From the sequence record OQ378934.1: 64,000 bases of DNA, one strand, 5' to 3'. Origin of the DNA: Escherichia phage LH2. Position 1 is the first letter of the stretch; each line of letters opens with the position of its first letter. The notes beneath the pieces were generated by a model. That model searched no databases and was not told where the DNA came from. It was given only the letters and a program-made list of their open reading frames with translations. The translations under genes were made by a program, and so were the position numbers. This document shows positions 1,846 to 6,409 of this stretch, one piece after another.

Positions 1846-2171
1846 TGACAGACACGCAACTTTTCGAGTATCTTTATTTTTCGCCAAAAACTATTAAAAA
1901 TAAATTGGTGAATCATTTTGAAATTTTGGCAAATAACAACGTCTTGAGTGAATTTTATCCTAAGCAATACAAATTGCAAAAAGGCGTATTCAAAGGATGC
2001 AGAGTTTTATGTACTGCTCCTAATGCAAAGTTAATGAATAAAATTCCATATTTTACCATGGAATTTATTGATGGGCCTTTTAAAGGACTAATTACCCAAA
2101 GTTTAATGGCATATGATTCTGAGCCATTTTTAATTAAAGAGCAATCTTGGATAAATTTATTTTCTAATTGA
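1842..2171 (+). CDS. Hypothetical protein
   Basis: ATG overlaps upstream stop (ATGA); 109 aa. Confidence 0.45.
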
Positions 2172-2179
2172 GAGGTTAT

Positions 2180-2542
2180 ATGAAAGCATATCAAATTCTT
2201 GAAGGCACGCATAAAGGTACTATTTATTTTGAAGACGGTATTCAAGCACGAATTATTGTCTCTAAAACCTTTAAAGAGGACTCTTTTGTAGACCCAGAAA
2301 TTTTCTATGGTTTGCATGCCCGTGAAATTGAAATTGAGCAACAGCCTACAGTTAAAATTGAAGGTGGTCAACACCTGAACGTTAACGTTCTGCGTCGTGA
2401 AACTCTGGAAGATGCAGTTAAGCATCCGGAAAAATATCCGCAGCTGACCATCCGTGTATCCGGTTATGCAGTTCGCTTTAACTCTCTGACTCCGGAACAG
2501 CAGCGCGACGTTATCGCTCGTACCTTCACCGAGAGTTTGTAA
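2180..2542 (+). CDS. Autonomous glycyl radical cofactor (GrcA/YfiD-like; equivalent of T4 Y06I)
   Basis: C-terminal ...[59 protein letters not shown] carries the glycyl radical motif RVSGYAVRF; SD GAGG before ATG 2180. Confidence 0.85.
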
Positions 2543-3022: not shown

Positions 3023-3300
3023 TGGCTCAATTAAGCGCAGGGTTTGGTTATGAGTATTATACTGCCCCTCGTCGTGTATCTGTTGTTCCTAAGAAAATTC
3101 AAAGTCTTGATGACTTCCAGGAAGTAGTCCGTAAAGCTTTCCAGGACTACGCACGTTATCTTAAAGAAGATTCACAGGACTGTCTCGAAGAAGATGAAAT
3201 TGCTTACTATGAGCAGCGTCTTGAACAGCTTAAAAACTTACATGAGGTTCGTGCAGAAGTTACAAAGTCTATGAATAAATTGATTAGATTTAAAGAATAA
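3022..3300 (+). CDS. Hypothetical protein
   Basis: Internal ATG at 3022 overlapping upstream TAA; 92 aa ([13 protein letters not shown]...). Confidence 0.5.
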
Positions 3301-3302
3301 CT

Positions 3303-3332
3303 GTTTACTTTTCCTCTTGACTGTGGTATAAT
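3303..3332 (+). promoter_or_regulatory. T4-type early promoter (GTTTAC -35, TGGTATAAT -10)
   Basis: gtttac at 3303-3308, tataat at 3327-3332, upstream of regB. Confidence 0.55.
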
Positions 3333-3359
3333 TTTTCTATCAGTTAAGAGGAGAATAAC

Positions 3360-3821
3360 ATGACTATCAACACAGAAGTTTTTATCCGTCGAAATAAGCT
3401 TCGTCGTCACTTTGAGTCGGAGTTTCGTCAAATTAACAATGAGATTCGTGAGGCATCAAAAGCAGCAGGGGTCTCATCGTTTCATCTAAAATATTCTCAG
3501 CATCTTCTTGATCGTGCAATTCAACGGGAGATTGATGAGACATATGTTTTTGAATTATTCCATAAAATAAAAGACCATGTTTTAGAAGTTAATGAATTCC
3601 TGAGTATGCCTCCACGCCCTGATATTGACGAAGATTTTATTGATGGGGTTGAATATCGTCCTGGGCGTTTAGAAATCACAGATGGAAATCTTTGGCTTGG
3701 ATTTACAGTTTGTAAACCTAATGCGAAGTTCAAAGACCCGTCACTTCAGTGCAGGATGGCAATTATCAATAGTCGTCGTTTACCAGGAAAGGCTTCTAAA
3801 GCAGTAATTAAAACTCAATGA
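3360..3821 (+). CDS. regB: Sequence-specific endoribonuclease RegB
   Basis: 153 aa, same length as T4 RegB; MTINTEVFIRRNKLRRHFESEF...; position between denV and tk. Confidence 0.85.
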   Translation: MTINTEVFIRRNKLRRHFESEFRQINNEIREASKAAGVSSFHLKYSQHLLDRAIQREIDETYVFELFHKIKDHVLEVNEFLSMPPRPDIDEDFIDGVEYRPGRLEITDGNLWLGFTVCKPNAKFKDPSLQCRMAIINSRRLPGKASKAVIKTQ

Positions 3822-3828
3822 GGTAAGC

Positions 3829-4374
3829 ATGAGAAAAGCACTACTCGCTGGTCTATTGGCCATTTCTATGATGGCACATAGCTCCGAGCATACTTTCAGT
3901 AATGTCCAACTCGATAACATGCGTTACGCGTATCAATTCGGGGAACAATTTTCTAAGGATGGAAAATATAAAACACATAAAAATATCCACAAAAGCGGAT
4001 TAGGTCATATAATGGCTGCTATTTTATGGCAAGAAAGCTCTGCCGGAGTTAATTTAAAATCTAAACCAAAGCATCATGCCTACGGAATGTTCCAAAATTA
4101 TTTGCCGACAATGCGAGCGAGAGTCAAGGAACTTGGTTATAATATGACTGATGCTGAAATAAAAAGAATGTTGAATAAACGGTCCAATTCAGCTTCCTGG
4201 GCGTACATTGAACTTTCTTATTGGTTAAATATACATAAGGGCGATATAAGAAAGGCTATATCCTCTTATAATTCGGGATGGAATGTTAAAGCAGGTTCTA
4301 AATATGCTTCTGAAGTCCTAGAAAAGGCTAACTACCTTAAAAATAATAAACTTTTGGAAATAGTAAATGACTAA
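3829..4374 (+). CDS. Secreted lytic-transglycosylase-like protein (SLT-domain motifs)
   Basis: Signal peptide MRKALLAGLLAISMMAHS; SLT-like motifs QESSAG, YGMFQN, SYNSGWN. Confidence 0.55.
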   Translation: MRKALLAGLLAISMMAHSSEHTFSNVQLDNMRYAYQFGEQFSKDGKYKTHKNIHKSGLGHIMAAILWQESSAGVNLKSKPKHHAYGMFQNYLPTMRARVKELGYNMTDAEIKRMLNKRSNSASWAYIELSYWLNIHKGDIRKAISSYNSGWNVKAGSKYASEVLEKANYLKNNKLLEIVND

Positions 4375-4708
4375 AATTTTGGTTTTATGTATAGGATTAA
4401 TTTCATTTTCTGCGTTAGCAAATACATCATATACTGAAATTAGAGAGTATGTAAACCGTACTGCCGCGGATTATTGTGGGAAAAATAAAGCATGCCAAGC
4501 TGAATTTGCGCAGAAATTAATATATGCATATAAAGACGGAGAAAGAGATAAATCAAGCAGATACAAGAACGATACTTTATTAAAACGATATGCTAAAAAG
4601 TGGAATACCTTAGAATGTTCAGTTGCGGAGGAGAAAGATAAAGCCGCTTGTCATTCAATGGTTGACCGTTTGGTAGATTCTTATAATCGAGGATTGAGTA
4701 CTAGATGA
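4367..4708 (+). CDS. Secreted protein, function unknown
   Basis: N-terminal signal peptide MTKILVLCIGLISFSALA; several Cys. Confidence 0.5.
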   Translation: MTKILVLCIGLISFSALANTSYTEIREYVNRTAADYCGKNKACQAEFAQKLIYAYKDGERDKSSRYKNDTLLKRYAKKWNTLECSVAEEKDKAACHSMVDRLVDSYNRGLSTR

Positions 4709-5172
4709 TTGTAAAATATATCAAGGGCGATATTGTCGCCCTTTTCACTGAAGGTAAAAATATTGCGCATGGATGCAATTGTTTTCATACGATGAAAGCT
4801 GGAGTCGCAGGTCAATTAACCAAAGCTTTCCCTAAAATTTTGGAAGCTGATAAATTACAGACTGAATGGGGTGATGTAACTAAACTTGGTTCTTATTCAG
4901 TCTATGAAAAATACTTTATGACTCATAAAGCGTATTGCTTCAACCTTTATACTCAATTTCAACCAGGGCCAAATTTTGAGTATTCCGCTTTAATGAATTG
5001 TATGTTAGAATTAAATGAGTTTGGTGAAAATAAACTGATTAAACCTACAATCTATATGCCTAGGATTGGTGCAGGCATAGGTAAAGGGAACTGGGATATT
5101 ATTGAGGGGATTTTAGATACATATTCCTCTAAATTAGAAATTGTGATTGTTGATTGGGAACCATTATTATGA
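4705..5172 (+). CDS. Macro-domain-like protein (possible ADP-ribose binding/hydrolase)
   Basis: Motifs resembling macro domain: N..G.N...AGVAGQL and PRIGAGIGKG; weak, by eye only. Confidence 0.4.
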   Translation: MIVKYIKGDIVALFTEGKNIAHGCNCFHTMKAGVAGQLTKAFPKILEADKLQTEWGDVTKLGSYSVYEKYFMTHKAYCFNLYTQFQPGPNFEYSALMNCMLELNEFGENKLIKPTIYMPRIGAGIGKGNWDIIEGILDTYSSKLEIVIVDWEPLL

Positions 5173-5381
5173 ATATACATTATCCACATCCATATGACCC
5201 AAAGAATAAGGCAGTAATTATTCGTCAATGGGAACGCATTTGCCGTACTAAATGTCCAATTAATAGTCCACACGATGTAGATAAAGACTACATTGGAACA
5301 TTCGTTGAATATACCTTTATTGATAGGAAAGGTCGTAAACAACATGTAGAAGAATATTGCTTAAAGGTTACATGGTTATGA
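5169..5381 (+). CDS. Hypothetical protein
   Basis: ATG overlaps upstream stop (ATGA); 70 aa. Confidence 0.45.
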   Translation: MNIHYPHPYDPKNKAVIIRQWERICRTKCPINSPHDVDKDYIGTFVEYTFIDRKGRKQHVEEYCLKVTWL

Positions 5382-5563
5382 GTCTGAGTAAAGAACAAAA
5401 AGATAAATTGTTTGAGCTTATCCATGAACTTCTAGATGAGCATACAGAAGCAAACACCTTTTATGATGAATACGGCCCGCTATCTCCCGAACAGCAAGAA
5501 GAATTTGCTGACCGGTTTGATAAGAAAGAAAACGAATTAATAGCTTATGTGAATACGCTTTAA
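5378..5563 (+). CDS. Hypothetical acidic protein
   Basis: ATG overlaps upstream stop; 61 aa. Confidence 0.45.
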   Translation: MSLSKEQKDKLFELIHELLDEHTEANTFYDEYGPLSPEQQEEFADRFDKKENELIAYVNTL

Positions 5564-5572
5564 GAAGGTGAT

Positions 5573-6154
5573 ATGGCGAGTTTAATTTTTACTTATGCAG
5601 CAATGAATGCTGGAAAATCTGCTTCTCTTTTGACTGCTGCGCATAATTATAAAGAACGCGGAATGGGTGTATTAGTTCTTAAACCTGTTATTGATACTCG
5701 CGATTCTGTCTGTGAAGTCGTTTCTCGCATTGGAATTAAACAGGAAGCGAATATTATTACGGATGATATGGATATTTTTGAGTTCTATAAATGGGCTGAA
5801 GCACAAAAAGATATTCATTGCGTATTTGTAGATGAAGCTCAGTTTTTAAAAACTGAACAGGTGCATCAATTAAGCCGAATTGTCGATACATACAATGTTC
5901 CTGTTATGGCTTATGGACTAAGGACTGATTTCGCTGGAAAATTATTTGAAGGTTCTAAAGAACTTTTGGCGATTGCAGATAAACTTATTGAACTAAAAGC
6001 AGTTTGTCATTGTGGTAAAAAAGCGATTATGACAGCTCGATTAATGGAAGATGGAACACCAGTTAAAGAAGGTAATCAAATCTGTATTGGTGATGAAATT
6101 TATGTTTCTTTGTGCAGAAAACATTGGAATGAATTAACTAAAAAGCTCGGTTAG
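5573..6154 (+). CDS. tk: Thymidine kinase
   Basis: 193 aa; P-loop AAMNAGKS; Zn-binding Cys pairs near C-terminus; same length as T4 Tk. Confidence 0.9.
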   Translation: MASLIFTYAAMNAGKSASLLTAAHNYKERGMGVLVLKPVIDTRDSVCEVVSRIGIKQEANIITDDMDIFEFYKWAEAQKDIHCVFVDEAQFLKTEQVHQLSRIVDTYNVPVMAYGLRTDFAGKLFEGSKELLAIADKLIELKAVCHCGKKAIMTARLMEDGTPVKEGNQICIGDEIYVSLCRKHWNELTKKLG

Positions 6155-6163
6155 TGCAAAAGT

Positions 6164-6171
6164 TATAAATA
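6164..6171 (+). promoter_or_regulatory. Late promoter-like motif TATAAATA
   Basis: Exact octamer about 25 nt upstream of the ATG at 6197. Confidence 0.4.
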
Positions 6172-6196
6172 GGTTTATCTAACTAAAGGGGTATAT

Positions 6197-6409
6197 ATGC
6201 TACAATTAACTGAAAAGCAACTTCGCAATCTTACTGTTCTTCAATTAGATGAAATTCGTAGGGAAGTTGGAAATATCATTTCAGCTTTGCGTCGAGAAGT
6301 ATCACTCAACCAATCTCCGGCAGACTATACTAGATTGCGAAATTTTGAAAAATACCTTGATAAAGTTAAGGCCGTGCATCGGCACAAAGTAAATACAGGA
6401 CAAAAATGA
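6197..6409 (+). CDS. Hypothetical protein
   Basis: 70-aa ORF with SD AAGGGG. Confidence 0.5.

Follow-up and report, generated by a model that had tools for sequence, protein, structure and literature searches.

Two phage macrodomain proteins have independently been given the name AdfM. One of them is Tk.4 of T4: when a T4 transposon library was grown on a DarTG2 host for the HIDEN-SEQ preprint, only tk.4 stood out significantly, a clean T4 tk.4 knockout turned out to be sensitised to DarTG2, and the gene was renamed adfM (anti-DarT factor Macrodomain); its authors write, without an assay, that the enzymatic removal of ADP-ribose from DNA "seems likely" (bioRxiv 10.1101/2025.11.20.689424). The other is gp104 of PhiKZ, which removes ADP-ribose from DarT2-modified single-stranded DNA (ssDNA) in vitro (Cell Rep 2026, PMC13309987). 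The A1pp/macro assignment of tk.4 dates from at least 2006, and a marginal SLT match of T4 vs.1, a gene located close by, was published in the same paper (Virol J 2006, PMC1524935). Here we describe the counterparts of these two genes in Escherichia phage LH2 (sequence record OQ378934.1), in a stretch of 64,000 nucleotides (nt) referred to below as the window. The vs.1 orthologue occupies 3829-4374 and codes for 181 amino acids (aa), and the tk.4/adfM orthologue occupies 4705-5172 and codes for 155 aa, both on the + strand.

The whole is best explained by two independent, non-essential accessory genes, one for a periplasmic lytic-transglycosylase-like protein (Vs.1) and one for an anti-DarT2 macrodomain (Tk.4), a reading to which we assign a probability of about 0.8. 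In T4 transposon data, vs.1 is non-essential with insertions at 46 of 52 sites, and tk.4 is non-essential as well. Both are catalogued T4 genes, and their domain assignments and the anti-DarTG2 role were already known. The discovery value of the locus is low, since the T4 genes are known, their domains were assigned in 2003-2006 and genetic evidence for the anti-defence role followed in 2025. What the present analysis adds are a subfamily distinction of Tk.4 based on Gln84 and a minority G31K/S32A allele, both of them modest.

The original prediction, which relied on short motifs, had placed a secreted SLT-like enzyme and a macro-domain-like protein between regB and tk. The two open reading frames (ORFs) do have the coordinates given above, Pfam identifies the flanking genes as regB and tk, and, going downstream from the SLT-like ORF, vs comes first and the macro ORF next. 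Profile searches unable to recover SLT or macro domains had been named as the outcome that would overturn the proposal; instead, both domains were recovered over their gathering thresholds. The motifs exceed chance, as the Pfam gathering scores are passed and the motif residues vary little or not at all among 58 (Vs.1) and 98 (Tk.4) homologues. The further suggestion that the macrodomain opposes ADP-ribosylating host defences is correct for the T4 orthologue, given the DarTG2 sensitivity of the tk.4 knockout described in the preprint.

The Tk.4 macrodomain and its glutamine 84

LH2 Tk.4 (4705..5172, + strand) is 97% identical (151/155 residues) to T4 Tk.4, with the same length, the same position between vs and tk.3 and the same ATGA overlaps; the differences from T4 amount to four substitutions, A15T, G31K, S32A and R72M. 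The protein scores above the gathering cut-off of Pfam Macro (PF01661; 26.3 vs 22 bits, E 7.4e-6) over aa 22-132, corresponding to profile positions 2-113 of 118, and falls in phrog_335, which is labelled "phosphatase" (E 1.1e-64). Its sequence matches in the PDB are the BT1257, Poa1p, TARG1, SCO6735 and DarG macrodomains. The AlphaFold2 model is confident (predicted local distance difference test score, pLDDT, 95.7), and Foldseek aligns it to TARG1 (E 4.8e-10), Poa1p and DarG with template modelling (TM) scores of 0.74-0.82, several of these structures having been solved with bound ADP-ribose. As modelled, Tk.4 has the three-layer alpha/beta/alpha macro fold and two glycine-rich loops (MxxGVA and PRIGAGIxxG). 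Profile score, model and fold matches all bear out the macro-domain assignment. N-terminal inspection by the hydropathy rules that were also applied to Vs.1 found no signal peptide, and Tk.4 is best read as a stand-alone macrodomain that works in the cytoplasm and belongs to the TARG1/Poa1p/DarG-like branch. Relatives were detected by tblastn in 2,737 phage records from many genera.

Conservation was assessed in an alignment of 98 sequences. The motif HGCNC (aa 22-26) is followed by glycine-rich loop 1, M-K-A-G-V-A-G-Q-L (aa 30-38), the two together covering 4768..4818 on the + strand; H22, G23, C24, N25, C26 and M30 are at least 90% conserved, while G33 and A35 are invariant. Glycine-rich loop 2, the diphosphate-binding loop, reads IGAGIGKG (aa 121-128; 5065..5088, + strand) and aligns to PRIGCGLDRLQW of TARG1. 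In this region P119, I121 and G124 are invariant, and G122, G128 and W130 are at least 90% conserved. The motifs AGVAGQL and IGAGIGKG, on which the macro proposal had been built, are present at aa 32 and aa 121. It is through these two loops that Tk.4 would bind ADP-ribose. DarT2 ADP-ribosylates thymidines in ssDNA, and, extrapolating from the 97%-identical T4 protein, Tk.4 would shield phage DNA from it during replication, most likely through removal of the ADP-ribose.

Gln84 lies inside the conserved N-L-Y-T-Q (aa 80-84; 4942..4956, + strand) and is invariant in 98/98 members of the Tk.4 family. Three independent alignments agree that it occupies the position of the catalytic lysine of TARG1 (K84) and DarG (P-T-K); they were obtained with a 97-sequence family profile against TARG1 and with MAFFT on two DarT-adjacent DarG proteins, TARG1 and PhiKZ gp104. 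The two DarG proteins, of 346-356 aa, come from Meiothermus and Mycobacterium plasmids and adjoin DUF4433 genes. At the position of TARG1 D125, the family has Gly or Ala. Because the lysine is replaced by an invariant glutamine, the chemistry of Tk.4 cannot be the Lys-dependent one of DarG and TARG1. Judging from these alignments, it must differ from that mechanism, or else protection must work in another way, and the chemistry of T4-type AdfM thereby becomes a testable question.

DarG of T. aquaticus and M. tuberculosis (PDB 5M31/5M3E/5M3I) has the macro fold in common with Tk.4 (TM 0.75-0.78). DarG, PhiKZ gp104 and Tk.4 also have in common the glycine loops, the first strand-loop Asn and the Thr that precedes the catalytic position, and T4 genetics points to the same biological target, DarT2. 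However, Tk.4 is only about 21-25% identical to DarG and gp104, and PTK becomes YTQ. Unlike DarG, it has no C-terminal DarT-binding domain and no adjoining darT gene, its neighbours being vs and tk.3. The DarG models of PADLOC and NCBIfam match Tk.4 weakly and in the macro part only: the PADLOC model gives 28.9 bits, compared with 132.9 for PhiKZ gp104 and 454 for the DarT-adjacent Meiothermus DarG, and with NCBIfam NF048014 Tk.4 reaches 27.6 bits where 250 are required. Tk.4 is DarG-like genetically, yet it stands outside the DarG clade with respect to the lysine, the C-terminal domain, the darT neighbour and the score cut-off. PhiKZ gp104 (12518-13006 of contig L005) keeps P-T-K and is only 21% identical to Tk.4; going by their sequences, the two proteins named AdfM belong to different macrodomain subfamilies, gp104 being DarG-like with the lysine and Tk.4 having the invariant glutamine.

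Human TARG1/OARD1 (PDB 4J5R), yeast Poa1p (PDB 6LFR) and BT1257 (PDB 2FG1/2AFC) are the best fold and sequence matches to Tk.4. BT1257, a Bacteroides protein of unknown function, also has Gln at the position of Q84 (NMIGQ). Poa1p, a phosphatase acting on a free metabolite, has the H-x-C-N-C motif in common with Tk.4 and a Ser at position 84. Residues H22 and T29 of Tk.4, conserved in 93 and 66 of the 98 sequences, align with H23 and S30 of Poa1p, which are mutated in the Poa1p structures; the overall identity is about 22%.

No bacterial member of the Tk.4 family was found beside darT, the two homologues examined from bacterial metagenome-assembled genomes (MAGs) being located on T4-like phage contigs without DarT. 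These two contigs, L007 and L008 (GCA_051648945.1 and GCA_051660865.1), were deposited as MAGs of a Bacilli bacterium and a Culicoidibacterales bacterium and are evidently T4-like phage DNA, carrying Rnl1, PNKP, a T4 spanin, dCMP deaminase and a Dda-like helicase. L008 has a Tk.4-like macro gene together with a Vs.1-like SLT gene that encodes a signal peptide and more canonical SLT motifs. Plasmid matches to Tk.4 were either distant stand-alone macro proteins or true DarG with the lysine. The plasmid matches H79-H89, from Bacillus thuringiensis and relatives, are distant Tk.4-like macro sequences of about 26% identity inside genes annotated "SLOG family protein" on large Bacillus plasmids. They may be fusions or neighbours of macro and SLOG domains that serve in a different setting of nucleotide signalling or conflict.

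The substitutions G31K and S32A fall in codons 31-32 (4795-4800), within glycine loop 1. Position 31 is Gly in 83 and Lys in 5 of the 98 sequences, the Lys recurring in distant members, and an identical 53-nt stretch encoding K31/A32 is found in 12 phage records of natural isolates. K31/A32 is a minority natural allele of tk.4. An inactivating effect of G31K was considered and is not supported, as a Lys occurs at this place in several distant homologues and in the 12 isolates, and DarG has Lys/Arg one residue later. With this natural recurrence and the DarG residue, the window allele is probably functional.

A perfect 8-bp GC-rich hairpin (AAGGGCGA-loop-TCGCCCTT) is located at 4723-4743, 19 nt into the tk.4 coding sequence. 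Its counterpart is annotated as a rho-independent terminator of the coding strand in one GenBank record, whereas our scan of the window flags the opposite strand only. Possible roles of the hairpin are the control of transcription or translation, or RNA processing.

Vs.1, a predicted exported SLT-like protein

Known family 1 lytic transglycosylases (E. coli Slt70, MltE and MltC; P. aeruginosa Slt, MltF and MltD) and the GH23 goose-type lysozymes are only 13-20% identical to Vs.1. Compared with these enzymes, Vs.1 has one small domain and an additional helical segment near its N-terminus (aa 25-58), lacks a lipid anchor, a superhelical domain or a LysM domain, and is assigned to a PHROG of its own (phrog_600, "unknown function"), lytic tail proteins and endolysins being weak secondary matches. 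The LH2 protein (3829..4374, + strand) is identical to T4 Vs.1, which is likewise encoded directly after regB, in 180 of 181 residues (99%). The one substitution relative to T4, G72A, lies within the QESS(G/A)G motif, where Ala is the family consensus. A search for homologues returned only 77 clusters, all of at least 40% identity, and every named one is a T4-like phage protein; 15 of the 77 carry a precomputed PF01464 match.

Vs.1 scores above the gathering cut-off of Pfam SLT (PF01464; 23.4 vs 21.3 bits, E 4.8e-5) over aa 61-154, or profile positions 16-101 of 117, and has the lysozyme-like all-alpha GH23 fold, the Pfam and fold comparisons being the informative evidence. When compared with PDB chains, the single sequence gave nothing useful, and the best match of a 58-sequence profile was a g-type lysozyme at E 0.6. 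PADLOC gave no match to Vs.1. E-S, G-x-x-Q and Y-N-x-G are signatures of family 1 lytic transglycosylases, and Vs.1 has a counterpart of each at the places where the original prediction had seen them. QESSAG (aa 68-73; 4030..4047, + strand) contains the E-S motif with E69 (4033-4035) as the predicted catalytic glutamate. YGMFQN (aa 85-90; 4081..4098, + strand) is the counterpart of the SLT G-L-M-Q and aligns to GLMQ of Slt70, and SYNSG (aa 146-150; 4264..4278, + strand) is that of A-Y-N-x-G, for which Slt70 has AAYNAG. E69, S70, G86, Q89, Y147, N148 and G150 do not vary among the 58 aligned homologues, whose identity goes down to 41%. An hhalign comparison of the Vs.1 profile with the Slt70 catalytic domain from the K-12 genome, not significant by itself (E 0.15) and used for motif register only, puts E69 on the RQES glutamate of Slt70, precursor residue 505, equivalent to mature E478, the known catalytic residue of that enzyme.

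The first 18 residues of Vs.1 (3829..3882, + strand) resemble a signal peptide: MRK is followed by ALLAGLLAISMMA and then by AHS, with a predicted cleavage at AHS|SEH. A basic n-region, a 13-residue hydrophobic core and small residues at -3 and -1 make up an n/h/c layout that is common to all 58 aligned homologues, and the structure model places an N-terminal helix there with low confidence. This N-terminus fits a cleaved Sec signal peptide. A lipoprotein was considered and ruled out: there is no lipobox cysteine, because the protein contains no cysteine at all. Gathering score, invariant motifs and rule-based signal peptide agree with the proposal of a secreted SLT-like protein.

Beyond fold and motifs, we infer a course of events in which Vs.1 would be made with a cleavable Sec signal peptide, released to the periplasm, and would adopt there the goose-lysozyme/SLT (GH23) fold. 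It would most likely act as a family 1 lytic transglycosylase, in which Glu69, as the single acid/base, cuts the bond between N-acetylmuramic acid (MurNAc) and N-acetylglucosamine (GlcNAc) and gives 1,6-anhydroMurNAc. The literature found on vs.1 function is limited to the 2006 comparative-genomics paper, and it includes no report of 1,6-anhydroMurNAc products. Vs.1 represents a conserved, presumably exported and probably muralytic protein of the best-studied phage, with no phenotype so far.

Weighing the alternatives

Several points count against the reading of the locus as a periplasmic lytic-transglycosylase-like protein and an anti-DarT2 macrodomain. The anti-DarTG2 evidence comes from one preprint. 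LH2 Tk.4 differs from the T4 protein in glycine loop 1 (G31K, S32A), so that its function is assumed, and both catalytic residues of TARG1 are absent from Tk.4 (K84 is replaced by Q84, D125 by G126). As to Vs.1, its SLT sequence signal is marginal, only 2 bits over the threshold, it has neither an NCBIfam match nor a useful PDB sequence match, and its signal peptide was called by simple rules, namely hydropathy and small residues at -3 and -1.

The missing lysine raises the question of whether Tk.4 counters DarT2 without hydrolysis, as a reader or decoy and not an eraser, by masking ADP-ribosylated ssDNA, by binding or inhibiting DarT2, or by consuming another ADP-ribose metabolite. The Gln found in 98/98 sequences where DarG and TARG1 have their essential Lys, the Gly/Ala in place of TARG1 D125, and the fact that the preprint itself goes no further than "seems likely" speak for such a role. 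Nevertheless, MacroD-type macrodomains are enzymes that hydrolyse without a catalytic lysine; the active-site Asn (N25), H22 and both glycine loops of Tk.4 are conserved at enzyme-like levels; and PhiKZ AdfM, albeit a different phage macrodomain, strips ADP-ribose from DarT2-modified DNA in vitro. Binding to DarT has the additional difficulty that 155 aa leave no extra domain for it. We consider a non-hydrolytic Tk.4 unlikely. Even less likely is that DarT2-modified DNA is not its main substrate and that the anti-DarT2 effect is a side activity of an enzyme for ADP-ribose-1''-phosphate (Appr-1''-p), O-acetyl-ADP-ribose, or proteins or RNAs that the phage's own Alt, ModA or ModB have ADP-ribosylated. 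The closest characterised relatives do include yeast Poa1p, an ADP-ribose 1''-phosphate phosphatase; H22 and T29 are the equivalents of Poa1p H23 and S30; and many GenBank records label the protein "phosphatase" or "Poa1p-like". However, T29 is only moderately conserved (66/98), the sole phenotype found for T4 tk.4 is DarTG2 sensitivity, the gene being otherwise dispensable, and we know of no source of Appr-1''-p in T4 infection. An anti-DarT2 macrodomain that most likely removes ADP-ribose from DNA is the reading we retain for Tk.4.

For Vs.1, there is a minor though real chance that it is not an active lytic transglycosylase and instead serves as a hydrolytic g-type lysozyme, a catalytically dead peptidoglycan binder or a decoy for the host's inhibitors of lysozymes or transglycosylases, or that its N-terminus is a membrane anchor or a signal of the SAR (signal-arrest-release) type. 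However, the catalytic Glu and all three family 1 motifs are unchanged in the 58 homologues, even at 41% identity, a point in favour of an active enzyme. A hydrophobic core of only 13 residues followed by AHS is what a cleaved signal peptide usually looks like and would be short for crossing a membrane, and there is no lipobox cysteine, nor any other Cys. That Vs.1 and Tk.4 form one functional module is very improbable and was rejected. The two genes are two apart in the window and in T4, and on L008, a distant T4-like contig, the same spacing separates a macro gene from an SLT gene resembling vs.1 (30% identity, E 7e-16). But the gene order in L008 is inverted, with a gene in between that bears no relation to vs; the general synteny of T4-like genomes explains the L008 arrangement; and the predicted compartments differ, periplasm for Vs.1 and cytoplasm for Tk.4. 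The distributions are also dissimilar (2,737 phage records of many genera for Tk.4 as opposed to 77 clusters for Vs.1, the named ones all T4-like), and the DarTG2 screen picked tk.4 alone.

With two independent genes as the preferred reading, a bolder version of it may tentatively be proposed, which we regard as doubtful. T4-type AdfM/Tk.4 might be a mechanistically distinct class of macrodomains, with Lys-independent removal of thymidine-linked ADP-ribose from DNA, non-hydrolytic binding or wider substrates, tuned by alleles such as K31/A32. Separately, Vs.1 might indeed act early in the periplasm as a lytic transglycosylase and have a part in T4 infection still to be discovered, for instance in cell-wall remodelling, superinfection or lysis control.

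Gene order and neighbours

In the ORF listing, the two genes belong to a tight run on the + strand (3360-3821, 3829-4374, 4367-4708, 4705-5172, two small ORFs, and 5573-6154). The gene order matches the T4 reference annotation, the region is the regB-vs.1-vs-tk.4-tk.3-tk.1-tk block of a T4-like phage, and its DNA at 3300-6200 aligns at about 98% identity to many Tequatrovirus genomes, HP3 and ECML-123-2 among them. On the left flank, regB (3360..3821, + strand) codes for the endoribonuclease (Pfam REGB_T4, E 1.4e-68; phrog_1323). Upstream of it lies a sigma70-like promoter match at 3304..3332 (+ strand), with TTTACT, a 17-nt spacer, TATAAT and the TG of an extended -10. As a consensus match only, of a kind not commoner in the region than in shuffled sequence, it is a possible early promoter of the regB-vs.1-vs-tk.4 run, its location just upstream of regB being consistent with co-transcription.

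The vs orthologue (valyl-tRNA synthetase modifier, 113 aa; 4367..4708, + strand) is 97% identical to T4 Vs and falls in phrog_1256 (E 6.5e-40). It sits between vs.1 and tk.4 and overlaps both, the former by 8 nt (ATGACTAA) and the latter by 4 nt (ATGA). The HIDEN-SEQ preprint reports that plaque formation in minimal medium is good only if vs is present (bioRxiv 10.1101/2025.11.20.689424). The N-terminus of window Vs is strongly signal-peptide-like, MTK being followed by ILVLCIGLISFSALA and then by |NTSY, and it is the most hydrophobic 15-aa window among Vs.1, Vs and Tk.4. The predicted mature protein has four cysteines (C37, C43, C84 and C95). These features would suit an exported, disulfide-bonded protein, an awkward fit with the cytoplasmic target of a valyl-tRNA synthetase modifier.

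Downstream of tk.4, its stop codon is overlapped by the start of the tk.3 orthologue, again as ATGA (5169..5381, + strand; Pfam DUF7202, E 8.6e-38; 98.6% identity to the matching ECML-123-2 ORF). A tk.1-like ORF (5378-5563) directly adjoins tk.3 and is followed by the right flank, the thymidine kinase gene tk (5573..6154, + strand; Pfam TK, E 2.6e-60). At the tk.3/tk.1-like junction (5381-5378), about 370 bp of the closest relatives HP3 and ECML-123-2 are missing from the window, and with them two small ORFs, a Cys-rich one of 68 aa and one of 57 aa. T4 has three ORFs in the interval between tk.4 and tk, namely tk.3, tk.2 and tk.1. Further upstream in the window, the ORF at 2168-2542 (+ strand) ends in a C-terminal glycyl-radical motif, RVSGYAV, and corresponds to T4 vs.6, which related records label as an autonomous glycyl radical cofactor resembling GrcA, a known function.

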